This document shows positions 11-50,681 of a stretch of DNA of 64,000 nucleotides, in pieces (position 1 is the first letter of the stretch; each line of letters starts with the position of its first letter). Source of the stretch: a virus; the IMG/VR virus record IMGVR_UViG_3300045996_000607, positions 22,292 through 86,291 of that record. One strand, written 5' to 3'. The notes below the pieces were generated by a model that worked only from the letters and a program-made list of their open reading frames with translations, was not told where the DNA came from and ran no database searches. The position numbers were made by a program, and so were the translations under genes.

Positions 11-685
11 TCATGCTGCCTTCCTTTCGGTATGCACGATCATGCCGGGGATGGTGACGGGACCGCGCTTGCCTTCGAGGGCCGCGAGTTCGTCAAAGAA
101 CCGCTGGCATTCGTCACGGCGCTGCGCCCACGCCCAGCGGGCGAATGCGGTATAGTCGGTGACTTCAGCGCGGTAGCTGGTGCGCAGTCCCGTAGCCGAG
201 CGGTCAATCTTGTTGGCGACAGCCGTGAGCTTTTTGGCGGTTGCAAGGTCCTGCTCCGCGGAAAATCTCTCCTGAAGATCATCGGAGGATTGCAGCGCGG
301 CCAGCGCCGCCTGCTGGCGGGCATCGGCTTCCTCACGAGCCACGCGCGCGGCCTCATCCTTCGCCTTCTGCCTGGCCGTGCGGTACGGTGTCAGCAGCCG
401 CTTGATCGTTTCGGCCGCCATATCGCAGCGATCCAGAAGCGGCTTGTATTTCGCCTGCACAGCCTTGGCGGCGTCATCATGCGGGCGCTTCTCCTCGACA
501 CGATCGGCATCCGCCGCCTTGCGGGCTTCCCGAACATCGTCCAGCAGCTTGTCGAGGGTGGCCTCCTGTTCGTCGTTCGACACCTCGCCTCCGGCAACGG
601 TGTCCGAAATGAGAGCGAACAGGTCCTCGATGTGGATGGCGTGCCCCTCCGCTTTCGGGGGGTGGTTGTGACCAATGCCGGTCAT
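11..685 (-). CDS. Coiled-coil phage protein of the recombination region (homolog of 47628-48332)
   Basis: GHNHPP..H..HIEDL N-terminus and IPG..I..E.KAA C-terminus shared with the phage B gene upstream of the annealase. Confidence 0.75.
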   Translation of the reverse strand: MTGIGHNHPPKAEGHAIHIEDLFALISDTVAGGEVSNDEQEATLDKLLDDVREARKAADADRVEEKRPHDDAAKAVQAKYKPLLDRCDMAAETIKRLLTPYRTARQKAKDEAARVAREEADARQQAALAALQSSDDLQERFSAEQDLATAKKLTAVANKIDRSATGLRTSYRAEVTDYTAFARWAWAQRRDECQRFFDELAALEGKRGPVTIPGMIVHTERKAA

Positions 686-5157: not shown

Positions 5158-5724
5158 TTAGAGGTCGGTCACTTTTTTGCGGACTCGACCGATTACCTCG
5201 ATGGGTTCTTCGCCAAGGTAGATCGCCTTATGCTCGTCGCTGGTCGAGCAGGGCTCAAGGCGCGCGGGCGCTTCCATGTACCGCTTGAAGGTGGTTTCCC
5301 CCTCGCTGTTGCGGATCACATAGAGCTTGCCTGCGACCAGGTGCCGATCGCGCGGCTCAACGATGATGTCCTCGCCCTCGCGCGCAATCAGATCCATGGA
5401 GTTGCCCGACACGCGAACGACAAAAGCGTCCTCGCTTAGACCGGCGTCCGGGCTGGGCATCCAGCCAATCACGCTTTCGAAGCCTTCGCGCCATGCGCCC
5501 GCAGCGACCAATCCGACGATCGGAAGCCGCCGCGAAGGCGGCAGTGCCGCAGGGTCGGTGACGCCCAGAAACCGGCGCAACAGATCCGTCTCCGCGGCCG
5601 TAAGCTTGCGGGTTCCCTTGAGCACCTTGGAGAACTTGTCAGGCGTGAGGCCAAGCACCTCCGCAGCATCCTTCTGCTTGGTGCCTCGCTCTTTGAGGAG
5701 CGCCCTAATGCCTTCGCCGTCCAT
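5158..5724 (-). CDS. CI-like repressor (HTH XRE + S24 peptidase), phage A
   Basis: HTH QKDAAEVLGLTPDKFSK; VAAG cleavage site; GNSM Ser and TFKR Lys; start trimmed to ATG 5724. Confidence 0.9.
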   Translation of the reverse strand: MDGEGIRALLKERGTKQKDAAEVLGLTPDKFSKVLKGTRKLTAAETDLLRRFLGVTDPAALPPSRRLPIVGLVAAGAWREGFESVIGWMPSPDAGLSEDAFVVRVSGNSMDLIAREGEDIIVEPRDRHLVAGKLYVIRNSEGETTFKRYMEAPARLEPCSTSDEHKAIYLGEEPIEVIGRVRKKVTDL

Positions 5725-5743
5725 AGCGGCATCAAAATCAAAC

Positions 5744-5807
5744 TCGCGATCATAGCAATTGCCGATATCGCAAGTTTTTCCTTGCATTGAAATTGCGATT
5801 GTCGCAA
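5744..5807. promoter_or_regulatory. Phage A right operators (OR): three sites between cI and cro
   Basis: 5793-5807 TTGCGATTGTCGCAA plus degenerate copies at 5744-5758 and 5759-5773. Confidence 0.75.
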
Positions 5808-5817
5808 CTTGCGGGGT

Positions 5818-6045
5818 ATGGAAACCCGCGCCGCTGATCTGATCGACGCCCTTGGGGGCACGTCCGCCGTAGCTCGAATGACGGAGGCACCAACCTCCAC
5901 CGTCCATAGCTGGCGGAAGAACGGGATACCGCAATCCCGGCTCGCGCATCTGAGGCTGGTAGCTCAAGTTGCGAAACCCGAGCTGGATTTTGACGCACTC
6001 GCGGTTGGCGTTCTGCCAACTGATATTGAAGCGAGAGCGGCATGA
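5818..6045 (+). CDS. Cro-like HTH protein, phage A
   Basis: IDALGGTSAVAR...STVHSWRKNGIP; divergent from cI. Confidence 0.85.
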   Translation: METRAADLIDALGGTSAVARMTEAPTSTVHSWRKNGIPQSRLAHLRLVAQVAKPELDFDALAVGVLPTDIEARAA

Positions 6046-6295: not shown

Positions 6296-6451
6296 GTGAC
6301 GTACCCCGGCCAGCGCCCCACCCCCTACGTCGCCCCCCGTCATCGCCGCCGCCGCGTGCCGTGGCTCGCGATCATCTGGCTGTCTGCGTTGGTTGCATGG
6401 CCGGTCGTGGAGATCGCGGTGGACTGGTTCTCGCGCGGTGGTGCGCTGTGA
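6296..6451 (+). CDS. Small membrane protein (homolog of 51599-51811)
   Basis: Single hydrophobic helix ending in VEIAxDW in both phages. Confidence 0.55.
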   Translation: MTYPGQRPTPYVAPRHRRRRVPWLAIIWLSALVAWPVVEIAVDWFSRGGAL

Positions 6452-7062
6452 GCGCTTGGGAAGCCCCCGGCGCCACTGACGAGTGGTATACGCCCAAGGC
6501 CGTCTTCGACGCGCTCGGGTGCGACTTCGACATGGATGTCGCTGCGCCCATGTGCATCCCCAGCTACATCGGCGATCGACTGCGCTGCACGACGCCGAGC
6601 GGTGGTCGCCGCTGGCTGTGGAAAGACAGCCTCGGAACCGAGTGGTCGGGCTTCGTCTGGATGAACCCACCCTTCGGCGGTCGCAACGGTCTGGTCCCGT
6701 GGCTCGACAAGTTCTTCCAGCACGCCAACGGCATCGCGCTCGTTCCGGACCGCACCAGTGCGCTGTGGTTCTGGGATGCATGGCTCAAGGCCGATGCTGT
6801 CCTGTTCACCCGCAAGATCCGCTTCCTCCGCCCCGACGGCACGGAAGGCAGACAGCCCAGCTGCGGCACCGCATTGCTCGCTGTCGGTCCTCAGGGTGTC
6901 CGCGCTCTCAACCGTGCCGCCGATTCCGGTTTCGGCATCCTCGCAACACCCTGCCCGCCAATGCGCCACGACACCACCGACCACCGCCTCCACACGGGCG
7001 GCAACTTCCTCGGGGCTGATCAGGGCGGCGGGTTCATTCATCTTGGGAGTGCTTGTAAGTGA
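6448..7062 (+). CDS. Phage DNA N6-adenine methyltransferase (Dam-like)
   Basis: DEWYTP, FDMDVAA and WMNPPF motifs; start trimmed to GTG 6448. Confidence 0.85.
   Translation: MSAWEAPGATDEWYTPKAVFDALGCDFDMDVAAPMCIPSYIGDRLRCTTPSGGRRWLWKDSLGTEWSGFVWMNPPFGGRNGLVPWLDKFFQHANGIALVPDRTSALWFWDAWLKADAVLFTRKIRFLRPDGTEGRQPSCGTALLAVGPQGVRALNRAADSGFGILATPCPPMRHDTTDHRLHTGGNFLGADQGGGFIHLGSACK
6983..7045 (+). repeat. Shared linker L0 (copy at 51878-51940)
   Basis: 63-bp near-identical sequence just upstream of the CII-like gene in both phages. Confidence 0.85.
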
Positions 7063-7535
7063 GCAACTGCAGCAATGATGTCCAAAGCTCGCCCGTCGTG
7101 TCGGACGAACGTTTGCGGGACATTCTCCGCAAGGATCTCCACCGCGCGTTCAACGTGGACCACACGTTCACGCGCAAATCGTTGGCCGAAGATAGCGGCG
7201 TAAACATCTACCAGATCGACCAGATCATGTCGCGCGACGCTGGGAAAAAGCGTCGGGTCGCCATTGAGGACGCGTTCTCGCTGGCCCTCTCTCTGGGAGA
7301 TCGCACGATCGGGAAACTGATCGCGGCGCTAGGTTATGTCGGCCAGCCCGCAGACGAAGTCGTTCACAGCCAGCCGATGCAAATCGTGGCGAACGGCATG
7401 AAGCACTTCGCTATCATCGCCAACGCTGCCGCTGACAACCGCATCGACCACACGGAAGAGCGCATCACCACGGAAGCAGCGGATGCGCTGATTGCGGAGA
7501 TCCTGCCGCTGTCGAGCGCGGGGAAGTCGGCATGA
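7059..7535 (+). CDS. CII-like regulator, phage A
   Basis: Position after cro; HTH-like LAEDSGVNIYQI; C-terminal ADNRIDHTE. Confidence 0.6.
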   Translation: MSNCSNDVQSSPVVSDERLRDILRKDLHRAFNVDHTFTRKSLAEDSGVNIYQIDQIMSRDAGKKRRVAIEDAFSLALSLGDRTIGKLIAALGYVGQPADEVVHSQPMQIVANGMKHFAIIANAAADNRIDHTEERITTEAADALIAEILPLSSAGKSA

Positions 7536-8227
7536 GCGGCGTTGTCCTCTCACTGTTCCCGGGAATAGGCCTGTTGGATCAAGCCTTCGAGGAAGAGGGC
7601 TTTTGCGTCGTTCGCGGTCCCGATCTGCTGTGGGGCGGCGATATATGCGCCTTCCATCCCCCTGCGGGGGTCTTCGCCGGCATTATCGGCGGACCTCCCT
7701 GCCAAAGCTGGTCGGGGCTCGGGAACGTCAATCGTGCCCGGTGGGGCGACCAATGCATGATGCCCGACCGCATCCCGGAGTTCGCCCGGTGTGTGAATGA
7801 GGCCCAGCCTTACTGGTATCTCATGGAGAACGTCGCGGCTGCACCGGCTCCGGACACCCCGGGCTATTCGTCGGTGCAGCGTCTTTGCAACAACCGGTGG
7901 TGTGGCGGCGAGCAAAACCGCGAGAGGAAGTTCACCTTCGGCGCTCGCGTAGCCGTGGACGCCTTCCACATCGACGGAGAGGCCCTGCTCCCGGGGAATT
8001 ACAAGCCGGCCGTCATCAGCAGCGGGCAAGCCGGGAAAGGCGGCCACCGTGCCTCGATCGCCGACATGGCGAGGGACCAAGGATTAGACGCAGGCCGGTT
8101 CGTCAACAGCCCGTTCACGACCACAGAGCTTCGCCGCGCGATAGCGAACGGGGTGCCGATTCCGATGGGCCGCGCCGTTGCCCGAGCCGTCAATCGCTCA
8201 TTGGCTCAGCATAGGGCCGCAGCATGA
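7532..8227 (+). CDS. C5-cytosine DNA methyltransferase
   Basis: LSLFPGIG, GGPPCQ, MENV, QNRER and ANGV motifs. Confidence 0.9.
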   Translation: MSGVVLSLFPGIGLLDQAFEEEGFCVVRGPDLLWGGDICAFHPPAGVFAGIIGGPPCQSWSGLGNVNRARWGDQCMMPDRIPEFARCVNEAQPYWYLMENVAAAPAPDTPGYSSVQRLCNNRWCGGEQNRERKFTFGARVAVDAFHIDGEALLPGNYKPAVISSGQAGKGGHRASIADMARDQGLDAGRFVNSPFTTTELRRAIANGVPIPMGRAVARAVNRSLAQHRAAA

Positions 8228-8382
8228 CCGCCTCACCAGACTGGCGGGTCTACCACGCCCACATGCTCCACTGCGCCCGTCAGGCGAAGAAGCCCGTAGT
8301 CAAGGCGATGTGGCTGAACGGTGCCGCTCGAGCACGTCGCGAGATGCAGAAGGCCAAGACGCCGGTGCAGGGGAGCTTGTTC

Positions 8383-8429
8383 GCATGAGCCCCGTCGCAG
8401 CACCCGGCATCTACGCGCGCACGGCGGAG
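8383..8429 (+). repeat. Shared linker L1 (copy at 52592-52638)
   Basis: 47-bp identical GCATGAGCCCCGTCGCAGCACC...GGCGGAG. Confidence 0.9.
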
Positions 8430-8729
8430 CGCTTTCCGTACCTCTCGCACCGCACGGTTGACGAGACCGGATACAGCTCCGGCGACCTGTTCTGCACCCC
8501 TGATCACGTCAGCACCGTCCCTATCCTGATCGGCTTCGGGGCGCCTGACTGCTGGGAATTCCGCTTCATCATTCCGGGAGATGGCCGATGAGCCCTGACC
8601 TTGGCCGCCGTGAACGGATGGTGGCGATGTACCGCCGCGGTCTCGGCACGGAAGAAATCGCCGAGCAATTCAGTGTCCGGACGCCAGCCGTTCGACAGGC
8701 TCTGATCCGCGCCGGCGTCTACCAAACAC

Positions 8730-8758
8730 CCTGCATCGCACAACGGAGGAAGGGATGA
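8730..8758 (+). repeat. Shared linker L2 (copy at 52703-52731)
   Basis: 29-bp identical CCTGCATCGCACAACGGAGGAAGGGATGA containing RBS and start. Confidence 0.9.
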
Positions 8759-9318
8759 CGCGCACCTGTCTCGATTGCTCGGGCACGATCAGTACGCGCA
8801 ACCAGTCTGGGCGCTGCAGACGGTGCGTGATGCTGCACATGCAAGCCGATGCCGCCGTAGCTGCGCGTCGCCTTGCGAAGCTCAAATCCCCGGAAACGCG
8901 CGCGAAGAAGTCGGCTGCGGCCAGGCGAGCTGTGGCTGAAGGCAGGAACAATCCCGCTTGGGTAGAGAAGAAGCGGGCGTCCGGGGTCGGGCTCCAAAAG
9001 CTTCTCCACGGTTCCCCTGAGGCTAGGGCGCGGTGGCTGTCTGCGCGCGCGCGCCGGCTAGACTGGTGCCCCGCAGACCGGATGGAAGAGTATCGCGCCC
9101 TGCGCAAGAAGATCGGGGCGGGCGAGGCAAAGCGCCTGATCCTCGCCGACGTTGCCGCGAAGATCGCCGCGACCGAAGCCCGCCGCGTAGATGCGCTAAC
9201 ACCGCTTCAACGTCAGCTTGAGCGCCTACATGCAGGCGCGGCCCTTATCGAGAGGCCAAGCTTCCGCCGTGCTGACCACGCTTTCACACTAGGCGGTATC
9301 GCCTCGGGGTTGCTGTGA
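8755..9318 (+). CDS. Basic hypothetical protein with N-terminal CxxC..CxxC
   Basis: Strong RBS; occupies the slot that holds the DnaA-C gene in phage B. Confidence 0.65.
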   Translation: MTRTCLDCSGTISTRNQSGRCRRCVMLHMQADAAVAARRLAKLKSPETRAKKSAAARRAVAEGRNNPAWVEKKRASGVGLQKLLHGSPEARARWLSARARRLDWCPADRMEEYRALRKKIGAGEAKRLILADVAAKIAATEARRVDALTPLQRQLERLHAGAALIERPSFRRADHAFTLGGIASGLL

Positions 9319-9452
9319 TGGCTACGCTCGAGCTCACCACCGATCATATCGCGGCGTACATCGACGCACGCCTCGCGGCGCGCAAGCTGCTTCGTGAGGA
9401 CCGCCAGCGTGCAGCTCGCAAGGGCGTCGAGACGCGGAGGGCGCACGCATGA
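9318..9452 (+). CDS. Small conserved protein (AAYIDARLAARK), homolog of 53009-53149
   Basis: Not in the ORF track; conserved in both phages and translationally coupled. Confidence 0.65.
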   Translation: MATLELTTDHIAAYIDARLAARKLLREDRQRAARKGVETRRAHA

Positions 9453-9901
9453 ACGCGCCGTGGCCCTTGCTCGAGGCGGGCATCATCACGCTCACCGTAC
9501 CCGGTGTGCCGGTCGCCAAGGGTCGCCCGAAGCTGACGACACGTGGCAAGTTCGCCCGTGCCTACACGCCGGCCAAGACGCGCCGCTACGAGGATCTGAT
9601 CAAGATCGCCGCAGCGGATGTGATGCAGGACTGTCCGCCGATCGAAGGCGCGCTGCTGCTCACCGTCACCGCCTATGTCCCCATGCCCAAGTCGCTGTCC
9701 AAGAAGGCACGTCTGGAGGCTCTGGAGGGCATCAGGAAGCCGGTCACCCGCCCCGATGCCGACAACTACGCCAAGGCCGCGCTGGATGGCTGCAACGGCG
9801 TCCTGTTCCGCGATGACAGCCAGGTCACCGACCTGATCGTCCGCAAGCGGTATTCCGAGCGTCCGCGGCTCGTCATCACACTGGAGCTCGATGCGCAATG
9901 A
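9449..9901 (+). CDS. rusA: RusA-family Holliday junction resolvase
   Basis: PVAKGRP...RPDADNYAKAALDGCNG..FRDDSQV. Confidence 0.9.
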   Translation: MNAPWPLLEAGIITLTVPGVPVAKGRPKLTTRGKFARAYTPAKTRRYEDLIKIAAADVMQDCPPIEGALLLTVTAYVPMPKSLSKKARLEALEGIRKPVTRPDADNYAKAALDGCNGVLFRDDSQVTDLIVRKRYSERPRLVITLELDAQ

Positions 9902-10572
9902 GCCGCTGGTTTCGCCATTATGCCGGGCTCGCCCGCGACGACAAGCTGGTCCGTGTTTCGATCAAATCGAAGCAATCCGTCGAGCGCGTCGTGTGGGTCT
10001 GGATCGCAATTTTGGAGAGCGCAGCCGAGATTGATGACGGTGGGCGCTTCGAGGTCGAAAAAGAGGAAATCGCCCGCTTCCTTCGATGCCCTGCCAGCAA
10101 GGTTGCCGCCGTTATTTCCGGTTTGGAGGACATCGGACGCCTCTCGGAGGGGAAAGTGGCAAAATGGGCGTCACGCCAGTTCCAAAGTGACCGTTCCGCA
10201 GCACGCACCAAGGCGTATCGCGAACGTCACCGTGACGGCGATGTGACGTCACAAGAACGTCGCAGTGACGCACCAGATAACAGAGACAGAGTACAGAGTT
10301 CCGAAGATAAATCTTCGGGCACGGTCGTGCCGCTTGTCGATCCTGAAAAGGTGATGTTCGACACTGGCCTTCGCTATCTCGCCGGCTGCGGCATTCCCGA
10401 AAGCAAGGCGCGTCCACAGCTCGGCAAATGGCGGCGGGATCATGGCGCCGGCGCGGTCATCGAGGCCCTCGGCGCAGCGCAGCGGCAGGGCGTGGTCGAC
10501 CCCATGGGCTGGATCGAAGGGCGGTGGCGGACCGAGAGGCAGAGCGCGCGGCAGCCGGTGGTCCCCCTATGA
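9898..10572 (+). CDS. Replication initiator (O-like), phage A
   Basis: RWFR N-terminus, internal iteron-like repeats, position upstream of the helicase. Confidence 0.7.
   Translation: MSRWFRHYAGLARDDKLVRVSIKSKQSVERVVWVWIAILESAAEIDDGGRFEVEKEEIARFLRCPASKVAAVISGLEDIGRLSEGKVAKWASRQFQSDRSAARTKAYRERHRDGDVTSQERRSDAPDNRDRVQSSEDKSSGTVVPLVDPEKVMFDTGLRYLAGCGIPESKARPQLGKWRRDHGAGAVIEALGAAQRQGVVDPMGWIEGRWRTERQSARQPVVPL
10225..10300. other. Putative replication origin of phage A
   Basis: GTGACG/CGTCAC repeats, palindrome TGTGACGTCACA (10242-10253), then an A/G-rich tract inside the initiator. Confidence 0.55.
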
Positions 10573-11084
10573 TCCACTGGAACCCGACGCGAGAGGGCAA
10601 GCAAACGTGCCCCGAATGCAGCGACAAGCGGAAACACAAGAAAGACAGGTGCTTGAGTGTCACACGAACCGACGAGGGATATGTCTGGTACTGCCACCAC
10701 TGCCAGTTCGCAGGCGGCACCGGCAATGCATCCGAAGCACGCGGCATGGATCGAAGCCCGCGGGATTTCCGCCGGGCTGGCAGCAAAGCTTGGGCTGGAG
10801 ACAGTCGACCGATCCGGCGCGAAGTGGTTGGCGGTTCCCTACGTGGAGCACGGCCGGACGGTGAACCACAAGTATCGGCTCACCTCCGAGAAGCGCCACA
10901 TGATGGACCCGGACGCGCCGCTGGTGCTCTGGAACCTCGACGGGCTGGAACGGGCAGCCGAGACTGGTCAACCATGGGTTCTCTGCGAGGGCGAGTGGGA
11001 TGCGATGGTGGCGCTCGATCTGGGCTGGGACGCCAGCTCGGTTCCCAACGGGGCGCCCTCCACGGAGAGCGACGACCCGGCTAA
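10569..11084 (+). CDS. Primase zinc-binding domain ORF (only the first ~52 codons look conserved)
   Basis: CPECS..RK...DRCLSV...WYCHHC, a Twinkle-type ZBD, out of frame with the Toprim-helicase. Confidence 0.6.
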   Translation: MIHWNPTREGKQTCPECSDKRKHKKDRCLSVTRTDEGYVWYCHHCQFAGGTGNASEARGMDRSPRDFRRAGSKAWAGDSRPIRREVVGGSLRGARPDGEPQVSAHLREAPHDGPGRAAGALEPRRAGTGSRDWSTMGSLRGRVGCDGGARSGLGRQLGSQRGALHGERRPG

Positions 11085-12162
11085 TGCCAAGCGCTACGAG
11101 TTTCTGTGGCGGGCTCGCGACCAGATAAACCGGGTATCGCGGATCGTTCTCGCGGTCGATGACGACGCAGCCGGCAAGGCACTGCGCGCGGACCTGATTG
11201 CGCTGCTCGGCGCCGATCGCTGCAGCTTCGTGGAGTACCCGTTCCCTGCCAAGGATCTGAACGAAGTCCTGCTCGAGCATGGCGCCGATGCGGTTCACAA
11301 GGCGCTGCGCGAAGCCAAGCCGGTCCCGGTCGAAGGCCTTTATCGGCTCAGCGACTTCCCCGACATGCCCGAGGTTCGCGGTATCCCGCTCGGCATCGAC
11401 GCGCTGGATGGCAAGATCGAGATCGTGGCCGGCACCCTCACGGTGTTCACCGGCTATGCCAACATGGGCAAGACGACCGTGACGAACACGATTGTAGCCC
11501 ATGCCATCATGCGCGGGTTCAACGTGTGCCTTGGCAGCTTCGAAACGCTTCCCAAGCCGATCCTTCGCGACCAGCTCGCACAGGCGCTCATCGGCTGCTC
11601 GCGCTACGAGTTCGCCGGGCATCCTCAACGCAAGGCGGCATACGAGACGCTGGAGAGGCAGATCCGCATCATCAGCAATTCGCTGAACGAGGATCTGGAG
11701 ATCGACATCAACGGCCTGCTTGAGCTCGCTCGCACTGCCGCAGTTCGCGACGGGTGCAAGCTGTTCATCTTCGACCCCTGGAACGAGGTCGAGCACAAGC
11801 GCCGCGGCGATGAGACTGTTACCGAGTATGTCGGCCGCGCCATTCGCGCAGTGAAGCGCTTTGCCCGGATGCACAACGTCGCGGTCTGGATCGTGGCGCA
11901 CCCGACCAAGCCGCAGAAGGGCGTCAACCAGATGCCCAGCCTGTACGACGTCTCGGACTCCGCGAATTGGTCGAACAAGGCCGATTACGGGCTGGTCTAT
12001 CACCGCAAGGACAAGACCAGGAACGAGGCCCAGCTTGCCGTCGTGAAGGTCCGCATGGGCCTCCCGGGCGAGTGCTGCTGCGAGACGGTGTTTCTGGATC
12101 AGCGCACGGGCCGGATTGCCGGTTCGCACCCCCTCCCCGACAGCATGAAGGAACAGGCATGA
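10726..12162 (+). CDS. Twinkle/T7 gp4-like Toprim primase + SF4 helicase
   Basis: CEGEWDAM, AVDDDAAG and KDLNE (Toprim); GYANMGKT Walker A, IFDPWN, VAHPTK. Confidence 0.9.
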   Translation: MHPKHAAWIEARGISAGLAAKLGLETVDRSGAKWLAVPYVEHGRTVNHKYRLTSEKRHMMDPDAPLVLWNLDGLERAAETGQPWVLCEGEWDAMVALDLGWDASSVPNGAPSTESDDPANAKRYEFLWRARDQINRVSRIVLAVDDDAAGKALRADLIALLGADRCSFVEYPFPAKDLNEVLLEHGADAVHKALREAKPVPVEGLYRLSDFPDMPEVRGIPLGIDALDGKIEIVAGTLTVFTGYANMGKTTVTNTIVAHAIMRGFNVCLGSFETLPKPILRDQLAQALIGCSRYEFAGHPQRKAAYETLERQIRIISNSLNEDLEIDINGLLELARTAAVRDGCKLFIFDPWNEVEHKRRGDETVTEYVGRAIRAVKRFARMHNVAVWIVAHPTKPQKGVNQMPSLYDVSDSANWSNKADYGLVYHRKDKTRNEAQLAVVKVRMGLPGECCCETVFLDQRTGRIAGSHPLPDSMKEQA

Positions 12163-12166
12163 GCGA
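12131..12166 (+). repeat. Shared linker L4 (copy at 56466-56501)
   Basis: 36-bp identical CCCTCCCCGACAGCATGAAGGAACAGGCATGAGCGA. Confidence 0.9.
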
Positions 12167-12497
12167 ACTAGCTTCAGCCGAGTGGCCGTTTAGCGGTCTG
12201 ACAAACGCGGAGATCGAGCGCCTCGACATGCTTTCGGAGGAGGCCGCGGAAATCATCGTGGCGGTGTCCAAGATCAAACGGCACGGTCCGTACAGCTACA
12301 ACCCGGACAAGCCCGACGATGGCGACAACGCGGCCCAGCTGAACAGCGAGATATCAGACTTGTTCGGGGTGTTGCTCGGAATGGCAGAGGCCGGGGACCC
12401 ATTTCATGTCGGCAGCATCGCCCAGCATCGCGCAGCTTGGACGAAAAAACTTCGGTACTCACACCATCAGGAGAACGCCCGTGCCCATGTATCGTAA
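12159..12497 (+). CDS. MazG-like nucleotide pyrophosphohydrolase
   Basis: LSEEAAE...K..RHG...NSEISDL (ExxE...ExxD). Confidence 0.65.
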   Translation: MSELASAEWPFSGLTNAEIERLDMLSEEAAEIIVAVSKIKRHGPYSYNPDKPDDGDNAAQLNSEISDLFGVLLGMAEAGDPFHVGSIAQHRAAWTKKLRYSHHQENARAHVS

Positions 12498-12744
12498 AAC
12501 CGCGCTCGTTGAAGCTGAGCAGTTCTTGCCGAGCGAAGGCAAAATCCCCGCTGGTGTTATCTCTGACGGCCTCGGCGACCCACTCAAGGACAACCGCTTT
12601 TCGTTCGTGCTCCAAACGCTGGAAGGTCAACACACCCTCCGCAACGGGGATTACATCTGCACCGGGCCCGCTGGCGAAAAGTGGAACGTCGAGCGCAGCA
12701 TCTTCGAGGCGACCTATGAGCTAGCTGCGGACACCCCCGCATGA
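12487..12744 (+). CDS. Widespread small phage protein (TLEG...GDY...GE...IF..TYE)
   Basis: Recognisable motif; function uncertain. Confidence 0.7.
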   Translation: MYRKTALVEAEQFLPSEGKIPAGVISDGLGDPLKDNRFSFVLQTLEGQHTLRNGDYICTGPAGEKWNVERSIFEATYELAADTPA

Positions 12745-12778
12745 CCGCCATCATCGCAGCAATCGTGGCGAGAGTAGC

Positions 12779-12973
12779 ATGAGCATCCTCTGCCGCTTCG
12801 GCATCCATCGCTACGGCGAGCCCACCTACGACGGCCCGTACAACCTTGGCGACGGCTTCGAGCGGACATTCGGAAACATGCTCATGATCGAGAAGTGCAC
12901 GCGCTGCCCGAAGAAGCGGACCACGCGGTTCTATCTGCCGGTGCTGGCTTCATGGAACAGGAGGAAGGGGTGA
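12779..12973 (+). CDS. Small protein with CRFGIH / CTRC Zn motif (DUF1660-like)
   Basis: Ends in linker L6. Confidence 0.6.
   Translation: MSILCRFGIHRYGEPTYDGPYNLGDGFERTFGNMLMIEKCTRCPKKRTTRFYLPVLASWNRRKG
12942..12973 (+). repeat. Shared linker L6 (copy at 56893-56924)
   Basis: 32-bp identical TGCTGGCTTCATGGAACAGGAGGAAGGGGTGA. Confidence 0.9.
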
Positions 12974-13218
12974 GCGAGATGGAGTGGTTCTTCGACTGCC
13001 CGCAATGTGGGCACATCGGCACCATGGCAGACATGCGCGAGCACCCTACTCGCCCAGTCGCAATGGACCTTGGCTTCTGCCCGAAATGCGGAGGCGAGAT
13101 CGAGGAGTTGATCTCTGAGGATCAGGTTCGCGCGCTGATGATCGAGTATGGCGACGATCCTGATGCCGAGATGGCCGCGATCAAAGCCAACCCCCGCAAA
13201 CCACCGGCGCAGGAGTGA
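12970..13218 (+). CDS. Small Zn-ribbon protein
   Basis: CPQCG...CPKCG; lies between L6 and L7. Confidence 0.65.
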   Translation: MSEMEWFFDCPQCGHIGTMADMREHPTRPVAMDLGFCPKCGGEIEELISEDQVRALMIEYGDDPDAEMAAIKANPRKPPAQE

Positions 13219-13251
13219 GTGATGGCGCGTAAACTAGGCGGCTCTAGGCCG
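13191..13251 (+). repeat. Shared linker L7 (copy at 57112-57172)
   Basis: 61-bp identical CCCCCGCAAACCACCGG...GGCTCTAGGCCG. Confidence 0.9.
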
Positions 13252-13379
13252 GTCACGCTCCGAAATGCCTCAAAACTGCCCAACGCAGGCCACTGGACGC
13301 GATTTGAGGGTGAAGTGGGACAATCCCTCACAATCAGCGCGAACACGCCACACGGGCTTTAAAATCGAAAGGACGGGAT

Positions 13380-13925
13380 ATGGGTCGCCACGCAAAGCGC
13401 AAGCCGATGAAAGCCAAGGGTCCGCCCGTTGTCATGGTGACGGGTATCGACGCGACTCCGGAACGCCTCGCCAAGGACCCGGACAACGACATCGTGCCGG
13501 CCGGCATCGAGAAGCTTGGCGAGCGGCAGGGCAAGGCGCGGCAGTTCCGCGCCACGCACCTCGATCGCCTGCACAAGTCGGGCAACCTGAGCTACCTGCA
13601 GTGGTACGCCGGCAACGTGTACCGCGAGACGCATGCCCGCTGCCATTTCGCGCTGTCGGTGGTCGCCAGCTACGGCGAGCGCTCCGGGGCAGCCGAACAC
13701 CCGGGCAACTTCGGCTTCGGGTTGCCACGGCAGGAAGCGCAGGTCAGGGCACGCGACCAGATGCGGCTGATGCGCAGCGAGTTTCCCCGTGAGCTGCAGG
13801 GGTTCATGGACCGTCTGCTGATCCATGACAGCATGCCGCGCTATGCCGGACGGGCCGCAATGCGGAACATGGCCGAGATCCGCAAAGGGCTGGATGCACT
13901 CGCGTTGTATCTGCGCTTGACGTGA
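13380..13925 (+). CDS. Putative late-gene regulator (Q-like by position), phage A
   Basis: Last early gene before promoter/terminator and terS; duplicated in phage B. Confidence 0.6.
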   Translation: MGRHAKRKPMKAKGPPVVMVTGIDATPERLAKDPDNDIVPAGIEKLGERQGKARQFRATHLDRLHKSGNLSYLQWYAGNVYRETHARCHFALSVVASYGERSGAAEHPGNFGFGLPRQEAQVRARDQMRLMRSEFPRELQGFMDRLLIHDSMPRYAGRAAMRNMAEIRKGLDALALYLRLT

Positions 13926-13972
13926 CCGGAAAATTCGGGCATGGAATCCCACAAGTTGGCGAATTGCGCCAA
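13917..13972 (+). promoter_or_regulatory. Putative late promoter (pR'-like) and short hairpin
   Basis: TTGACG at the end of the Q-like gene; TTGGCG-aattg-CGCCAA hairpin; identical at 58430-58485. Confidence 0.5.
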
Positions 13973-13973
13973 T

Positions 13974-14000
13974 AAGGGCTCGCTTCGGCGGGCCTTTTTC
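13974..14000 (+). terminator. Intrinsic terminator (tR'-like)
   Basis: AAGGGCTCGC-TTCG-GCGGGCCTTTTT. Confidence 0.75.
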
Positions 14001-14110
14001 GTTTCAGCGCGCGTCCCCTGCGCTGACCCCGCCCGACCCCGATCCGCAGACGCACTGATGCACCAGCTGCGCGAAGGCCGTCGGGCGGGACATATTCGAG
14101 GAGCATTGGC

Positions 14111-19455: not shown

Positions 19456-20487
19456 ATGGCGACCATTGGCAATTCCTTTCTGGGAATCATCGACCACTAC
19501 AAGCGGGTAGACCGCAACGGCAACATCATGCCGATCATCGAGGCGCTGCATCAGCTCAATCCGCTCATGCAGGACGCCCACGTCATCGAGGCGAATAACG
19601 GCTCGAGCCACCGTTCCACGATCCGCACGGGGCTTGGTTCCGTTGCGTGGGGCAAGCTCTATCAGGGCATCCTGCAGAGCAAGTCGACCACCCAGCAGGT
19701 GGAAGACACGACCGGCTTTGTCGAGCGCTTGTCGACCATCGACACCCGCTTCCTGAAGCTGGTGAAGGACCCCGCCGGCGAGCGCATGGCGGAAGCCAAC
19801 GCGGCGCTGGAAGCCATCTCGCAGGATGTGCAGTCCAACTTCTTCTACGCGGACTCGAACATCACGCCTGAGCGCTTCAAGGGCCTGGCTGCACGCTACA
19901 ACGCGATTGCGGCGGGCGGTGCAGCCGCTGCCCAGATCGTGGACGGCGGCGGTGTCGGCTCTGACAACACGTCCGTCTGGCTCGTGGGCTGGGGCGCTCC
20001 CGGCACGTCGCTGATCTACCCCGAGGGTACGACCGGCGGCATCCAGCGCGAAGACAAGGGCGAGCAGCGCACGCTCGATGACAACGGCATGCCGTACTTC
20101 GTGAAGGAGGAATATTTCTCCCAGCACGTCGGCGTGAAAGTCGGCGACTGGCGCTACAACGTCCGCATCGCCAACATCGACGTGTCCAACATGCTCGCCG
20201 GCACGGTCGACGTGTATGCGTTGCTGCGGCAGGCCTATTACAAGGCCCATGAGCGCCGCAACACGCGGATGCAGAACGGTGGCATGGTGCAGGGCGTCAA
20301 GCCCGTCATCTACGCAAACCGCGACTTCTTGCAGGCGCTCGATGCGCAGGCGACTAACGACGGGGCGAGCGACAACTTCGTTCGCATGACCCCGGACGAG
20401 ATCGCCGGCAAGGAAATCCCGACCTACCGCGGCATCCCGATCCGCGAGACGGACGCCCTGATCAACGCGGAAGCCCGCGTGGTCTGA
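19456..20487 (+). CDS. Major capsid protein, BPP-1 Bbp17-like
   Basis: GGAGG RBS; PERFKGLAARY, DWRYNVRIANID, GIPIRETDAL; followed by a Bbp16-like cement gene. Confidence 0.85.
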   Translation: MATIGNSFLGIIDHYKRVDRNGNIMPIIEALHQLNPLMQDAHVIEANNGSSHRSTIRTGLGSVAWGKLYQGILQSKSTTQQVEDTTGFVERLSTIDTRFLKLVKDPAGERMAEANAALEAISQDVQSNFFYADSNITPERFKGLAARYNAIAAGGAAAAQIVDGGGVGSDNTSVWLVGWGAPGTSLIYPEGTTGGIQREDKGEQRTLDDNGMPYFVKEEYFSQHVGVKVGDWRYNVRIANIDVSNMLAGTVDVYALLRQAYYKAHERRNTRMQNGGMVQGVKPVIYANRDFLQALDAQATNDGASDNFVRMTPDEIAGKEIPTYRGIPIRETDALINAEARVV

Positions 20488-21325: not shown

Positions 21326-23374
21326 ATGAATGTGCCCGATCTGCGCGCTGCTGTGTCTGTAAATGGCGGAACCCCCACCCGCTATGATATCGTCGGGCTG
21401 TTTCGTCAGCTGGTCACAGCCTATGGTGGGACACCGACGAAATGGTCCATCCGTGAACTTCTGCGGGAGGCGGTGACCGCAGCCGGCGGCACGCCGACGC
21501 AGTGGTCACAGGTTGGGCTCATGCGCGAGCTGGCGGCGGCCTTGGGGGTTGATCCGGGCGAGTATGCCGGGCGCACTCTTTCAGAGATTATCGCAGAGAC
21601 TGCGAAGGGCGGCACCCCCACGCCTACGCCCACTCCCGGCGTGGCTGCTCCGAACTATGCGACGGTCGCCAGCGCCCCGAACGTCGAAGTCTTCCCGCAC
21701 CTGACGACGTTCACCGAGAGCGGCGGGCGCGTGACCGGGTTCACCGATCAGAAGGGCCTGCCCTTCACCTCGCCCGACACAAACGGCCCCGTACTGATGA
21801 CGGATCTGCTGGGCCGCAAGTTCCTGCGCTTCACGGTGTTCACCGGCATTCAGGGAGCATGGTTGCGCAACGCCACGCTTGCGGCGCTGGACACCTATTG
21901 CGCGACATGGATGCTCGTTGGGCGCGTCCACCTTGCCTACAAGCAGGCATTCGTCAGTCACGGCAACAACGGCGCGACGCCGGCCACGAACGGATCTGCA
22001 CAGCTCGGCTGCTCGGGCGGGACCAACGTCATCCCGGGCGCCCCGATGGTCTCGGGCATGACGCCGCTGATCAACACCGCTGTCGCCAACGCTGCCAAAC
22101 TGGAGACCGGCTGCCAGCTTCAGGTCATCGGCAACGCGATCATGGCGAGCGACGGTGTGGGCGGGGCGACCACCTCGGGCACGCTGCACCACTGGCTCAA
22201 CAACGAGGTCGCAAGCCTCGCGATCAGCGGGCAACGCAATGTCGGCCGCACTGGCTTTGAAGTCGGGCGGCGGGCGAATGGCTCGGGCTCGACGTTCGAG
22301 TACGCGTATCTGGACCTCTACTACCTCGCTGGCTGGACGACGGGGCAGTTCACCAATGCGAACGTGCTGGCGCAGTCGACACTGATCGCAGGCATTCTGA
22401 CCAGCAACTGGGCGATCCCGGCGATCACCGATAGCACTATCCTCGGAGGCGATAGCCGCACCGAGCAGAACCAGACCAATGGCGTGTCCATGGCGATGAT
22501 GCTGACCGAGCCGGGTGGCGCAAATGCCCTCGCCACCAGTCACCGCGTGATCAATCTCGGCTATTCGGGCAAGGGATGGCAGACGCAGTACAACGCCACC
22601 GTCCGTCCGACCTCGCCCTATGGCTTCCTGCTGGGCGGCGGCAAGGATCGCGCGGTGTTCGGCGTCGGCCCCGGCGTGAACGACATGACTGCGGCGTCCG
22701 GCTGGCCCAAAACCAACGCAACTGCCGATCCCGGTGCCCTCACGGCTAACGATACCGTGGCGAGAGCGAACGAAGTATACGATACGGCGGGCACTCTGGA
22801 CTCGGTTTTCACCGGCTCGATCAGCGCCGCGGTCCTCACCGTCACTGCCGTGACCAGCGGCGCTATCCGCGTGGGCATGTCGCTCGATGTCAACGGAGGC
22901 ACCCTGTTCATCAACTCGCTTGGCACGGGAACGGGCGGAACTGGAACCTACAACCTGAACACTTCCGCCACGGTGGCATCGCAGACGATCACCGCGCGCC
23001 AGGGTGATGCACGTCGCACCGTGACCAACCTGCTTACGCTCGGCTGGAAGGTAGCGGTTTCGGCAGAGATCAAGAACAACGGCGCGAACGACGCCGGGAG
23101 CCCCTCACCCCTCGACACGCTGCGCGGCAAGCTCCTTGCCATGGCGGCTGATGTTCAGGCCGGCCCGGGTCAGACCTATGACGGCAAGTTCCGCGCGTTC
23201 GACAATCGCGAAATCGTGGTCGGCGGGCTGAAGATCTTCGGCACCGATGCTGTATTCAGCACCGGCTATTACACCGATGGCGTGCATCCGAACGACACGG
23301 GGCGTCCGTTCCTCGTGAGCGGCGGAACCACCCCGCAGCACGGCATCAAGGCCAACATCGAGGCGCTCGTCTGA
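21326..23374 (+). CDS. Virion-associated SGNH/GDSL esterase (N-terminal 20-aa repeats, PT linker, beta-rich domain)
   Basis: GDS, INLGYSG, GVND and DGVHP catalytic blocks; start at ATG 21326. Confidence 0.8.
   Translation: MNVPDLRAAVSVNGGTPTRYDIVGLFRQLVTAYGGTPTKWSIRELLREAVTAAGGTPTQWSQVGLMRELAAALGVDPGEYAGRTLSEIIAETAKGGTPTPTPTPGVAAPNYATVASAPNVEVFPHLTTFTESGGRVTGFTDQKGLPFTSPDTNGPVLMTDLLGRKFLRFTVFTGIQGAWLRNATLAALDTYCATWMLVGRVHLAYKQAFVSHGNNGATPATNGSAQLGCSGGTNVIPGAPMVSGMTPLINTAVANAAKLETGCQLQVIGNAIMASDGVGGATTSGTLHHWLNNEVASLAISGQRNVGRTGFEVGRRANGSGSTFEYAYLDLYYLAGWTTGQFTNANVLAQSTLIAGILTSNWAIPAITDSTILGGDSRTEQNQTNGVSMAMMLTEPGGANALATSHRVINLGYSGKGWQTQYNATVRPTSPYGFLLGGGKDRAVFGVGPGVNDMTAASGWPKTNATADPGALTANDTVARANEVYDTAGTLDSVFTGSISAAVLTVTAVTSGAIRVGMSLDVNGGTLFINSLGTGTGGTGTYNLNTSATVASQTITARQGDARRTVTNLLTLGWKVAVSAEIKNNGANDAGSPSPLDTLRGKLLAMAADVQAGPGQTYDGKFRAFDNREIVVGGLKIFGTDAVFSTGYYTDGVHPNDTGRPFLVSGGTTPQHGIKANIEALV
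21608..22607 (+). repeat. Direct repeat 1 of the SGNH gene body (copy 62995-64000)
   Basis: Mostly synonymous differences; 22481-22607 is identical to 63874-64000. Confidence 0.95.
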
Positions 23375-40214: not shown

Positions 40215-40468
40215 GCGGTATCTCCTTGATTCATCCCTGCTATTTCAGCGTTGAGGGAGGGGGTGTAGGCGACGCGATCCCAATCCGACGTAGGGTTGGT
40301 GCAGAACTCCCCGTGCTTCCATCCGTAGCCGCGCATGTGATACATTCCGCCGTCACGACACAGGTAGGGGCCGTTATCCCAATCACGCGGGGCGTTCGGA
40401 TAGTCGGGATGATCGGGGCCGTATGCCTTCATCCCGACAGGAATCGTCAATGCAAGAAGATCGCTCAT
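40211..40468 (-). CDS. Small protein, IP.GMK...P.DWD.GP.L...VAYTP family
   Basis: Shares its domain with 44792-45601. Confidence 0.6.
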   Translation of the reverse strand: MSDLLALTIPVGMKAYGPDHPDYPNAPRDWDNGPYLCRDGGMYHMRGYGWKHGEFCTNPTSDWDRVAYTPSLNAEIAGMNQGDTA

Positions 40469-40683
40469 CAGAAGCCTCCCGTCTTGGCGTGCTGAAAGCA
40501 GAACAGGTTGCCCAGCCCATGACCGTCGCGACGCTTGCAGCGGTAAAGATGCAGAGCCATCGACCCGCGCCCCGCGTACCCGGCGCATCGCCCCGGAGAC
40601 CAAGCCAACGGCTCGTGATCCTCTATGAAGCACTCGTATCGGCGCGCCTTGACGCGATCGATTTCAACAGCATCCTCGCTCAT
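40468..40683 (-). CDS. Small Cys/His hypothetical protein
   Basis: GGAGG RBS; C.R..GHG...FC.QH. Confidence 0.6.
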   Translation of the reverse strand: MSEDAVEIDRVKARRYECFIEDHEPLAWSPGRCAGYAGRGSMALHLYRCKRRDGHGLGNLFCFQHAKTGGF

Positions 40684-40720
40684 GCTACACCTCCCAGGCG
40701 CGCTATCTCGGATTCGGGGG

Positions 40721-40963
40721 TCATTTGGCATTCTCGTGTTGAGCCGGCCACCGCTCCGGGTGCTCGAGCGCGTCGCGAAGGTCCGCCGCCATCTGCGGGT
40801 TCTCGTGCTGAATACTGGCGGCATAAGTCTCGATGGCGCGCCAAGCGTGAATGTCGCCGGCAAAGTCGAGCACGATGTAGCGGGCCTCGGGTCGGCAGGG
40901 TTTTCCGTCCGTGCGGGTGACGTTGAAGCGAGCCTCGAACCCGCCGTTGGTTTCGCGTGTCAT
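40721..40963 (-). CDS. Small hypothetical protein
   Basis: GGAGG RBS; F.V.RTDG...YIVLD..D.HA. Confidence 0.6.
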   Translation of the reverse strand: MTRETNGGFEARFNVTRTDGKPCRPEARYIVLDFAGDIHAWRAIETYAASIQHENPQMAADLRDALEHPERWPAQHENAK

Positions 40964-43407: not shown

Positions 43408-43799
43408 GGCGTTCCCTCCCCCACCCCCGCGCTGCCGGTCTTGCCGGGGCTGAGGGCCTGCAGGATCTCCCGGCTTTCGGTGCAGAACCAGTCGTAGGCG
43501 CCCTGCCAGTCGGCGCGCTCTATATCCTCGTCGTCCATCTCGGATGTCGGGCGCTGTTTGGCCATTATGCGCAGCCGCTCGATCGCGTCAGAATCCGTCT
43601 CCGGATCGAGCGTCGATGCGACCGGGCGGGTGTTGAGGCGATGGCGGGCGATCTTCTGCATCTTCTCCCAATGGTCGAACTCGCCATTAAGGATGCGCTG
43701 AAACCCGCCCTCATTCGGCACCACGTCGAAGCCCATCAGGAAAATGAAAAGCTCCCGATCAGCCCGCACCACCTCTGCCGGCGCGCTTGTTTCAGTCAT
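43404..43799 (-). CDS. Early hypothetical protein (DR..F/ARHR domain)
   Basis: Coupled; shares a domain with 2916 and 49884. Confidence 0.6.
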   Translation of the reverse strand: MTETSAPAEVVRADRELFIFLMGFDVVPNEGGFQRILNGEFDHWEKMQKIARHRLNTRPVASTLDPETDSDAIERLRIMAKQRPTSEMDDEDIERADWQGAYDWFCTESREILQALSPGKTGSAGVGEGTP

Positions 43800-43975
43800 G
43801 GGACGTAATCCTGAAGGCGGGTTTCTCGCGCGGGTCCGTCTCTTCCCACATCTGGCCGATCATGCTGCAGCTAAGCGCGTGAATCATATCAGCGGTGAGG
43901 CGGCATCCCGTCCCCCGGTTATGGGCTCGGCGCATCCGATTGAGTGCGTCTTGGGCGGCAGCGAGAACACTCATA

Positions 43976-44512
43976 TCACCCCTCCTCCCTCTGTTCGTTG
44001 CTGGCATCGTCCCGCCCTCCGTCGTTGGGGGTGAGGGCTGCTCGGGCTTTTGCGCGCAACCGGATGATCTCTTTACCCGCTTGGATCATCATTCGGGCGG
44101 CGTTGACATCTCCCTGCCTCTCAAGGGCTCGCGCCATCACGCCAAGGTCTTTCGTCCGGACAAAGCCATCCTCCCCCGTCTCGCCGCTATGGGAGGGGAT
44201 CAAGGCAAGGATGGCGTCGGCGGCGGAAAGTTGATCCAGCCAATGCGCCGCCGCCATATCGGACCCGCGCGCGAATGTCGGCCCGCTGACCTTGGCCGCA
44301 ATAATTTCCGCCACCCGTTCCCGCGAAGGAACCGCCGGCATTGCGGCTGCGGGTTCGGTGAAGGCGAGCATGGCGCGGATTATCGCGTCGTTGTCTTGCA
44401 TTGTCAGGTTGACGCGCCCATTCGCCACGTCTTCTCGCTTCTGCTGCTCGCGCGCTTGACGCAGCACCTCTCGCGCACACTCGGCCAGCGCCTCGGATCG
44501 GGAGTTGGTCAT
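43976..44512 (-). CDS. Early hypothetical protein
   Basis: RE.VA.II...ADAILAL motif, also seen in 1785-2450. Confidence 0.55.
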   Translation of the reverse strand: MTNSRSEALAECAREVLRQAREQQKREDVANGRVNLTMQDNDAIIRAMLAFTEPAAAMPAVPSRERVAEIIAAKVSGPTFARGSDMAAAHWLDQLSAADAILALIPSHSGETGEDGFVRTKDLGVMARALERQGDVNAARMMIQAGKEIIRLRAKARAALTPNDGGRDDASNEQREEG

Positions 44513-44603
44513 AGGGAGGTGTCCTTGGTGGCGAGGGCAAGTGCAGCGCGCACAGCGGCTTCCTGAATGCGGGCAAGCGCGATCTCGTAGGCTTTGATCT
44601 GCT

Positions 44604-44795
44604 TCATCGCGGCTTCCTTCCCGTGCCGCTGCACTCGCTGGGCGACCGACATTCCTGCGCGCGCTCACAATGCGTCGAGGGGCAGCGCTTCCAGTTGTCC
44701 AGAATGTCTGTGCGGCACCAATCCTCGTGATAGGTAAGGTGCCCGCATTCCTTGCACGGACCCTTTGGCCCTTCGAACAGGCTGAGGATGCTCAC
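44604..44795 (-). CDS. Small Cys-rich protein
   Basis: CPSTHCERAQECRSPSEC; GAGGAG RBS. Confidence 0.55.
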   Translation of the reverse strand: MSILSLFEGPKGPCKECGHLTYHEDWCRTDILDNWKRCPSTHCERAQECRSPSECSGTGRKPR

Positions 44796-45828: not shown

Positions 45829-46176
45829 TCAGTGCGTGGGAGCCCCCACAGAGGCGGCAGGCGCGGGCTTGCGGGGCTTGCCACCGGGGATGAGGTTGGC
45901 GACGTTGCGGCGGTACTTGAGGGCGTCCTCGCGGTAGCCGTCGCGCTCATCCTGCGCAGTGATGCGCTCGATGGCACTGGCGTTCGCATCGGACAACGCC
46001 GCGCGAAGGTAACGAAGCACCATCTCTGCGGTGGTCTCGTCGTGCCGAGGCTCCGGATGCAATCCTAGCACCTTCAGGCCGTCAGTCAGCTCGCCAACCA
46101 TCTCACGCAACGCTGCGGCGCCGTTTGCCTTTGCTTCGGCCACCATCTGATCACGCGTGCTCTTGAGTACCAACAT
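45829..46176 (-). CDS. Hypothetical protein
   Basis: GAGGAG RBS before ATG 46176. Confidence 0.6.
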   Translation of the reverse strand: MLVLKSTRDQMVAEAKANGAAALREMVGELTDGLKVLGLHPEPRHDETTAEMVLRYLRAALSDANASAIERITAQDERDGYREDALKYRRNVANLIPGGKPRKPAPAASVGAPTH

Positions 46177-46190
46177 GGTCGTTCTCCTCT

Positions 46191-49421: not shown

Positions 49422-49581
49422 GTCGTCACCCGCCGCTCATCACGATCCTCGCCTTCGGGATCGGGGAACGGGGTGAATTTGCTGGCGCGTCTGGCCTGCT
49501 CGGCACGAAGGCGCGCGACGATCCGCTCGAAGCTCTCAAGGCGATCGAGGCCCGTTGCCGCGATCGGGTTGGTGCGGGCGT

Positions 49582-50592: not shown

Positions 50593-50628
50593 GTTCTCAT
50601 CTCCAGCGCCGGTATGGCGTGGAGATCA

Positions 50629-50673
50629 TGTACCGCTTATCGGTACATCAGGTCAATACCGAAAATCGGTACA
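50629..50673. promoter_or_regulatory. Phage B left operators
   Basis: TGTACCGCTTATCGGTACA (50629-50647) and AATACCGAAAATCGGTACA (50655-50673). Confidence 0.8.
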
Positions 50674-50681
50674 CGCGAAAT

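Follow-up and report, generated by a model that had tools for sequence, protein, structure and literature searches.

The question raised by this locus is how two phages can hold unrelated genes in their early operons within a common framework of short, shared sequences. The locus is a window of 64,000 nucleotides, bases 22292-86291 of a single contig of 86,291 bp (IMG/VR virus record IMGVR_UViG_3300045996_000607), and self-comparison of the contig revealed two related, collinear phage genomes arranged head to tail, hereafter phage A and phage B. An initial annotation of the window had proposed that short blocks, following one another in the same order in the early-right regions of both phages, form a grid for the exchange of gene cassettes. 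The answer that we favour, with a probability of about 0.65, is that these blocks are boundary or "linker" sequences for the homologous exchange of gene and domain cassettes, which double as units of translational coupling. The evidence for it lies in how the blocks are built, in their collinear order and excess conservation, in breakpoints that coincide in three phages, in protein tails that do not depend on the cargo bearing them, and in the fold of a phage-encoded annealase.

Both phages possess an integrase (95% nucleotide identity between A and B), a recombination module in the early-left operon and replication genes in the early-right operon, and downstream of these both have, in the same order, a conserved gene for a protein of 181 amino acids (aa), a shared terminator-like hairpin, a terminase and an SU10-type portal. 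A and B are related temperate phages with mosaic early operons, in which unrelated genes, and in some open reading frames (ORFs) unrelated domains, are joined. The contig has a 127-bp terminal overlap, and the two genomes meet at a 473-bp exact repeat within a gene that is otherwise 94-97% identical (window positions 21608-22953 and 62995-64000, at the contig ends). The resulting 86-kb circle of two complete phages is either a true cointegrate or an assembly figure-of-eight; whichever origin applies, the comparison of the early regions of A and B is unaffected by it.

Each of the early-right blocks named by the initial annotation (L0, L1, L2, L4, L6, L7 and a "Q leader") was recovered where it had been placed (Table 1). 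L1 (47 bp), L2 (29 bp), L4 (36 bp), L6 (32 bp) and L7 (61 bp) show no mismatch between A and B, and neither do the opening 60 bp of the Q leader, while L0 matches at 59 of 63 positions, or at 63 of 69 after BLAST extension. Outside each block, similarity drops to random at once. The claim of a common order held without exception: the blocks are perfectly collinear between unrelated flanks, all 102 exact A/B matches of at least 20 bp are collinear, and shuffled sequence gave collinear exact matches of at most 15 bp. The Q leader is identical at its start as claimed, but it is no isolated linker and instead opens a 764-bp region of 90.6% identity. A homologous gene of 45/46 codons (A 9315-9452, B 53009-53149; 73% protein identity) is presumably the "L3" missing from the earlier numbering; it is an ordinary shared gene and no exact linker. 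A reading of L0 as the N-terminus of a minus-strand repressor was dropped on checks of third-codon-position GC content and Pfam matches; L0 is best read on the plus strand, where it forms the 3' tail of an ORF in both phages, a Dam-like methylase gene in A and one of 74 codons in B.

Most of the blocks span the last codons of one gene, its stop, a ribosome-binding site and the next start, as the initial annotation had described, and the stop, the Shine-Dalgarno sequence and the start are preserved together with NTGA overlaps. In A, 13 of the 15 early-right junctions are 4-nt overlaps of this NTGA type, so that an exchange preserving the junctions keeps translational coupling. A shared block is borne by 6 of about 15 early-right junctions in A and by 6 of about 11 in B, to which one shared small gene is added. 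Scans for promoters and terminators detected nothing special within the linkers.

Unrelated proteins do end in identical peptides, since the tails ...LPDSMKEQA, ...LASWNRRKG and ...PRKPPAQE were all found, and the contention that the cargo between linkers differs was borne out in kind. Where A has a Dam-like methylase, B has a 74-codon ORF; a Cys-rich basic protein stands against a protein with a DnaA_C domain, and a RusA, a 224-aa protein and a primase-helicase against a DUF1064 protein, a DnaB, a single-stranded DNA-binding protein (SSB) and a 66-aa ORF. In one further slot two small genes of A face a single 45-codon ORF of B (52594-52731), which accommodates both L1 and L2, the latter as its last 10 codons. 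The individual cargo labels fared unevenly: DnaA_C was confirmed (E value 1e-27), "MazG-like" corresponds only to a sub-threshold match (E 0.0075), and the "basic Zn protein" has no family match. Upstream of L1, a 166-bp "gap" in B (window 52427-52597) appears to hold an unannotated small ORF ending in the GCATGA of L1, with a C-terminus that resembles A gene 8224-8388 and a gene in a third phage, phage C (L001 5921-6082).

The primase-helicase of A, which ends in the L4 tail, allowed tail and cargo to be set apart. None of its 120 closest database homologues (65-93% identity) carries the 10-residue L4 tail, and all 120 end in 2-15 variable residues beyond a conserved ...RTGRI core, so that the tails are a property of the junctions, not of the cargo. 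This family thus presents many tails on one cargo, and L4 one tail on three unrelated proteins, namely the primase-helicase of A, the 66-aa ORF of B and a 212-aa protein of phage C. The hypervariable C-terminal 2-15 residues of the primase-helicase (10657-12162) and its 120 homologues end in Ala in most cases, in keeping with a GCATGA at which the stop overlaps the start of the following gene.

The pattern had been claimed for the early-right region and is present there, but it is not confined to it. Eleven further isolated blocks (29-59 bp, 92-100% identity) were found in the minus-strand early-left operon and beside the integrase. By three-frame reading, seven of these are junctions with a C-terminal tail, a Shine-Dalgarno sequence and a stop/start overlap, and the remaining four encode Pro-rich interdomain peptides inside ORFs with differing flanking domains, with neither start nor stop. 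Eight of the blocks, four of each type, lie within 43595-45005 and are 29-59 bp long and 94-100% identical to A, whose copies are located upstream of the window. Self-comparison detected almost no such blocks in the structural-gene regions. Next to the A counterpart of window 44956-45005, 5' of the window (contig 19754-19917), we noted a mini-domain of about 43 aa with a CxxC...CxxC pattern; this Zn-ribbon mini-domain sits between two copies of a 17-bp linker core in A, while B has one copy and no insert.

In their unrelated flanks and their location the blocks agree with what has been called boundary sequences. There are 17 isolated blocks of 29-69 bp, 91-100% identical and set in random flanks, and all early-right blocks as well as 7 of the 11 early-left blocks cover a tail, a stop, a Shine-Dalgarno sequence or a start. 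Among exact matches, the early regions contain 15 isolated islands, all 29-61 bp long; the range of 17-28 bp is empty apart from pieces of larger blocks that hold mismatches, and shorter matches amount to a single 16-mer and to 12- and 13-mers at chance level. We compared this range, with the gap beneath it, with the approximately 30 bp quoted as the minimum for Red-beta recombination (De Paepe et al., PMC3945230).

The linkers are more conserved than genes that both phages share. With 17 mismatches in 686 bp, their divergence lies below the 5.1% of the integrase region (P = 0.004) and the 9.4% of the 181-aa gene region (P = 2e-8), and 11 blocks totalling 441 bp show no mismatch; between C and A, 101 of 102 linker positions are identical, against 80% identity in the 181-aa gene (P = 2e-9). 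Trimming by BLAST introduces an upward bias into these figures, and they are treated as supportive, not exact. In the direction of transcription, 8 of the 17 blocks open at a run of at least four C (background 3%, P about 2e-8), and in frame these runs are proline codons that start the tail or the interdomain peptide. The 17 blocks differ from one another in sequence, and within a phage each linker occurs only once, the exceptions being one local 17-bp duplication in A and one duplicated junction core in C.

Phage C (IMG/VR contig 3300045996_000387, loci L001 and L003) shows that the linkers extend beyond the two genomes in which they had been noticed. Compared with A, its L4 matches at 31 of 31 positions, Lx at 34 of 35, L6 at 36 of 36 and L7 at about 91%, and six early-left blocks are shared with B or A in the same order. 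The cargo of C is unrelated to that of A and B on both linker sides, such that L4, L6 and L7 each join three different upstream and three different downstream genes in the three phages, as expected of one linker joining different modules. Moreover, the left edges of L4, L6 and L7 agree within 2-6 nt across the three phages despite the three different upstream genes. The only homologous cargo pairs detected by BLASTP were A7/B6, A3/C2 and B1/C1.

Two arrangements in C resemble duplicated or empty slots, as do the joined L1 and L2 of B and the Zn-ribbon insert of A. The junction core at 49870-49913, present once in B, occurs twice in C around an extra gene (L001 1927-2542), which is the footprint of a cassette insertion at a junction, and Lx is fused directly to L6 to form a 22-codon ORF, like an "empty slot". 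B and C also share 37 bp covering the leader and the start of the first early-left gene (window 50588-50680, minus strand; L001 3569-3660). Just 5' of this leader stand TTGAC-type promoter-like sequences with differing palindromes, which look like operators of different immunity.

A fourth phage, D (locus L002), is 75% identical in the 181-aa gene and has junctions of the same style with other sequences; it keeps only a diverged L7 (about 70%), which abuts the start of the 181-aa gene directly. Given that D is without the linkers despite this identity, and that the linkers are conserved in excess, sharing within one recombining pool fits better than ancient functional conservation. No linkers were found in four phages related via the integrase alone (42-59% aa identity). 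An exact-pattern scan of IMG/VR matched the L6, L4 and L7 cores to one contig only and gave 0 matches for L1 and for an early-left 31-mer; an L6 23-mer had 0 matches in metagenomes of the Joint Genome Institute, as did an L4 22-mer in 185,579 species genomes. Loci related to the 181-aa protein numbered two among viruses, none among genomes and one among metagenomes, the last without upstream DNA. Close homologues of proteins of these phages are encoded on many Logan and JGI contigs.

In the recombination module of both phages a putative exonuclease gene (PHROG 10477) adjoins a Rad52-like gene, and B also has a gene for a NinB-like mediator. The initial annotation had called the B protein (46975-47631) an annealase, which is right at the level of fold. 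A single-sequence model was poor (predicted local distance difference test score, pLDDT, 52) and was replaced by an AlphaFold (AF2) model built on an alignment of 42 homologues (pLDDT 92.8), which has the fold of the Rad52 N-terminal domain. Its top Foldseek matches were human RAD52 (E 2.7e-7, probability 1.0, template modelling score 0.43-0.59), followed by Mgm101, 80-alpha Sak and Red-beta, and in the ESM Atlas the protein falls among clusters named Rad52/22. No Pfam match to Rad52_Rad22 (PF04098) or to another single-strand annealing protein model was obtained for it or for the 42 homologues, a search against PDB sequences gave no match, and its PHROGs label is "exonuclease". With a Rad52-like fold and no match to a sequence model, we regard it as a fold-level relative. 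A has a counterpart that is also 218 aa long, shares 41% identity with it over 152 aa and has its end at window base 14. Many homologues are 70-85% identical across only the first 66-78% of the protein's length, and judging from these alignments its C-terminal helical part also appears to be swapped between phages.

Most of the blocks are units of translational coupling. They code for a short, hydrophilic tail that begins with Pro and ends the upstream protein, and within this tail lies the Shine-Dalgarno sequence of the next gene; an NTGA stop/start overlap comes after it, in some cases together with the opening codons of that next gene. On the reading that we favour, the linkers would be homology patches just long enough for homologous recombination, performed by the Rad52-like annealase and exonuclease of the phages or by the host RecA. 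Co-infecting phages or resident prophages would swap, insert and delete cassettes at these patches and leave operon expression intact. We infer both that crossovers fall inside the blocks and which enzymes would make them; for the crossovers the evidence is indirect, from the coincident breakpoints, the duplicated junction cores around extra genes, the gap in block lengths and the excess identity.

Several points weigh against this reading. No recombinant has been observed, and the linker carriers are three phages only, possibly from one sample. The apparent 100% identity is an overestimate, since BLAST trims its alignments and the blocks were selected for being detectable, and the 29-bp threshold is based on 15 islands. 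The junctions bear real translation signals, whose conservation may be partly functional. The right-hand edges of L4, L6 and L7 vary between phage pairs, so that a "linker" is in part no more than the overlap between shared tracts, and joining each linker to unrelated cargo requires at least one non-homologous event. The last two points also speak for an account in which the blocks play no part and are passive remnants of illegitimate replacement, by non-homologous or microhomology joining, with selection for joints that keep gene ends and coupling. That account is the prevailing view for most phage mosaics, in which boundary sequences are usually not found (PMC3029335), and the C-runs at the edges of 8 of the 17 blocks could serve it as microhomology. 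We nevertheless hold it to be unlikely here. Independent illegitimate events are not expected to converge, at three linkers and on three different upstream genes, to within 2-6 nt, nor are random joints expected to reuse a resident tail of 8-23 codons in frame on unrelated genes; many islands shorter than 29 bp would be anticipated and none is seen; and leftovers of common descent should not exceed the integrase and 181-aa genes in conservation, as the linkers do.

Could the blocks instead be translation-coupling or regulatory elements under purifying selection, unrelated to recombination? Most of them hold a Shine-Dalgarno sequence and an NTGA overlap, and the tails share a Pro-first, hydrophilic style. 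Yet about 15 nt suffice for coupling, whereas the blocks are identical over 29-61 nt, synonymous sites included. The 17 blocks differ mutually and reveal no common operator or motif, the junctions of D have the same style in different letters, such that function does not dictate sequence, and four of the blocks, as interdomain linkers within ORFs, have neither start nor stop. We therefore consider purely functional conservation improbable. Still more remote is an assembly artefact, in which the assembler would have merged two phages into a chimeric circle and created the shared blocks. One contig with a 127-bp terminal overlap and two complete phages linked through a 473-bp exact repeat is indeed typical of a figure-of-eight in an assembly graph. 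The blocks (29-61 bp), however, are shorter than the apparent k-mer of 127, which makes it impossible for them to create joins in the graph; several recur on an independent IMG/VR contig, and a possible chimeric join at the 473-bp repeat leaves the early-region comparison intact. A stronger form of homologous exchange can also be formulated, in which the linkers are selectively maintained recombination adaptors, each at or above the Rad52-like annealase minimum of about 30 bp, starting at a proline/C-run, one per position, and together forming a population-level cassette-exchange system. The proline/C-run start would insulate the reusable tail from the protein fold or mark the start of exchange, the system would span both early operons and even domains within ORFs, and the uniqueness of each linker to one position would keep gene order fixed. 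We regard this extension as doubtful and prefer homologous exchange at the blocks in its simpler form.

Table 1. Shared blocks and other features discussed in the text (window coordinates unless stated otherwise; ORF and gene coordinates in the last column)
Feature	Phage	Position	Strand	Description
L0	A	6977-7045	+	3' tail codons of Dam-like methylase gene 6361-7062; 63/69 vs 51872-51940
L0	B	51872-51940	+	3' tail of 74-codon ORF 51733-51957, just 5' of 156-aa gene
L1	A	8383-8429	+	upstream stop overlapping ATG, first 15 codons of gene 8385-8591; 47/47 vs B
L1	B	52592-52638	+	start and first 15 codons of 45-codon ORF 52594-52731
L2	A	8730-8758	+	last 8 codons of gene 8588-8758, Shine-Dalgarno, ATGA start of gene 8755-9318; 29/29
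L2	B	52703-52731	+	same junction, leading to DnaA_C-domain gene 52728-53012
"L3"	A	9325-9451	+	127-131-bp block, 74% nucleotide identity
"L3"	B	53016-53145	+	as above
L4	A	12131-12166	+	last 10 codons of primase-helicase 10657-12162, Shine-Dalgarno, ATGA start of gene 12159-12497; 36/36 vs B
L4	B	56466-56501	+	L4 tail on unrelated 66-codon ORF 56297-56497, start of gene 56494-56745
Lx	A	12736-12770	+	stop/ATGA junction, first 10 codons (MTAIIAAIVA) of mini-ORF; absent from B, 34/35 in phage C
L6	A	12942-12973	+	last 9 codons (LASWNRRKG), Shine-Dalgarno, GTGA start of gene 12970-13218; 32/32 vs B
L6	B	56893-56924	+	L6 tail on 59-aa membrane-like protein 56745-56924, start of gene 56921-57139
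L7	A	13191-13251	+	last 8 codons (PRKPPAQE), stop, 33 nt downstream; 61/61 vs B
L7	B	57112-57172	+	followed by 675-bp insert absent from A
Long-homology region	A	13335-14097	+	90.6% to 57848-58609; leader, 181-aa gene 13380-13925, hairpin
Early-left blocks, set 1	B	43595-43634, 43766-43801, 43975-44033, 44170-44198	-	within 43595-45005
Early-left blocks, set 2	B	44334-44366, 44488-44533, 44792-44833, 44956-45005	-	within 43595-45005
Two junction blocks near integrase end	B	40232-40271, 40676-40721	-	95% and 93.5% identical to A
Junction block, NinB-like gene / next gene	B	46174-46210	-	37 bp, 92%
Blocks shared by B and C only	B	49550-49587, 49870-49913, 50190-50233, 50588-50624	-	37-44 bp, 92-100%; junction or leader type
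Rad52-like single-strand annealing protein	B	46975-47631	-	218 aa, fold-level assignment
Putative exonuclease partner	B	47628-48332	-	PHROG 10477; A homologue at window 11-685 (-)
CI-like repressor	A	5158-5967		differs between phages
CI-like repressor	B	50682-51560		differs between phages
Phage A genome	A	contig 1-44771; window up to 22480		
Phage B genome	B	22481-63873		

The 181-aa gene at 13380-13925 had been labelled "Q", a name for which we found no family support, as the protein has no Pfam or PHROG match. It is compatible with Q in position only, being the last early gene before a terminator-like hairpin and the terminase genes. The hairpin, GC-rich with a 10-bp stem, is identical in both phages and lies just 3' of the gene (13974-13997 in A, 58487-58510 in B). 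This layout of gene, hairpin and terminase is similar to that of lambda Q/tR', while the protein matches no known family.

The host is probably a member of the Sphingomonadaceae, judging from a GC content of 63% and from named homologues of three different proteins in Sphingomonas or Sphingobium. Searches of the INPHARED phages by megablast, blastn and tblastn yielded no relative and only two weak gene-level matches, PLSDB contained no close relative, and no tRNA genes were found. A has three DNA-methyltransferase-like genes (window 6361-7062, 7532-8227 and 2437-2919), which are Dam-like, a partial match to a C5-cytosine methylase model and a PHROG 954 member, respectively; B is without methyltransferase genes at the corresponding positions.

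Short conserved boundary or linker sequences have been described for lambdoid phages in the modular theory (Susskind and Botstein, 1978) and for HK620 (Clark et al., 2001), both as cited in PMC3029335. The exchange grid put forward in the initial annotation, with its ordered short junction blocks, differing cargo and preserved expression signals, is this known model and implies no new mechanism. The likeness is close: short conserved sequences at gene or module edges in temperate early operons, unrelated flanks, a fixed order and a proposed role as exchange sites. What differs is the host clade (probably Sphingomonadaceae, 63% GC), a phage type without INPHARED relatives, and the greater length of the blocks (29-61 bp), which have a lower length limit and reach into coding sequence as reusable C-terminal tails or interdomain peptides. 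In addition, a large share of the early junctions bears a block shared by the pair, unlike most boundaries in the literature, at which linkers were not found, the ground on which the linker route is usually dismissed (Pope et al., PMC3029335).

Rad52-like phage recombinases perform relaxed homologous exchange (Martinsohn et al., 2008, PMC2327257; De Paepe et al., 2014, PMC3945230). The systems studied there resemble A and B as temperate phages with a Rad52-type annealase and an exonuclease, with mosaics bounded by short homology and minima of about 30 bp and 29 bp, respectively; recombination was measured in E. coli phages in those studies, whereas the enzyme here is known by its fold alone. 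Integron gene cassettes (attC and IntI) are also ordered, exchangeable single-gene units under a common promoter. They have a common attC-type site at every boundary, whereas every linker of A and B differs, no integron integrase gene was seen in the A and B operons, and exchange would rely here on homology instead of a specific site. An integron-like, site-specific interpretation was rejected, as the linkers share no common recombination site.

The linker idea is already known as the Susskind-Botstein/Clark model, and the A/B pair is a very clean example of it and no new kind of system. Distinctive are the share of early junctions with a linker, the coding tails and domain joints, the length floor, the proline/C-run edges and the non-enterobacterial host. 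Whether phage mosaics arise by homologous exchange at linkers or by illegitimate joining followed by selection has been debated since 1978. To this debate the pair contributes measurable predictions, namely a length floor of about 29 bp, edges at proline codons, cargo-independent tails and a Rad52-fold annealase in both phages. While it adds no new principle, it is a good natural test case beyond the enterobacterial phages in which the idea arose.

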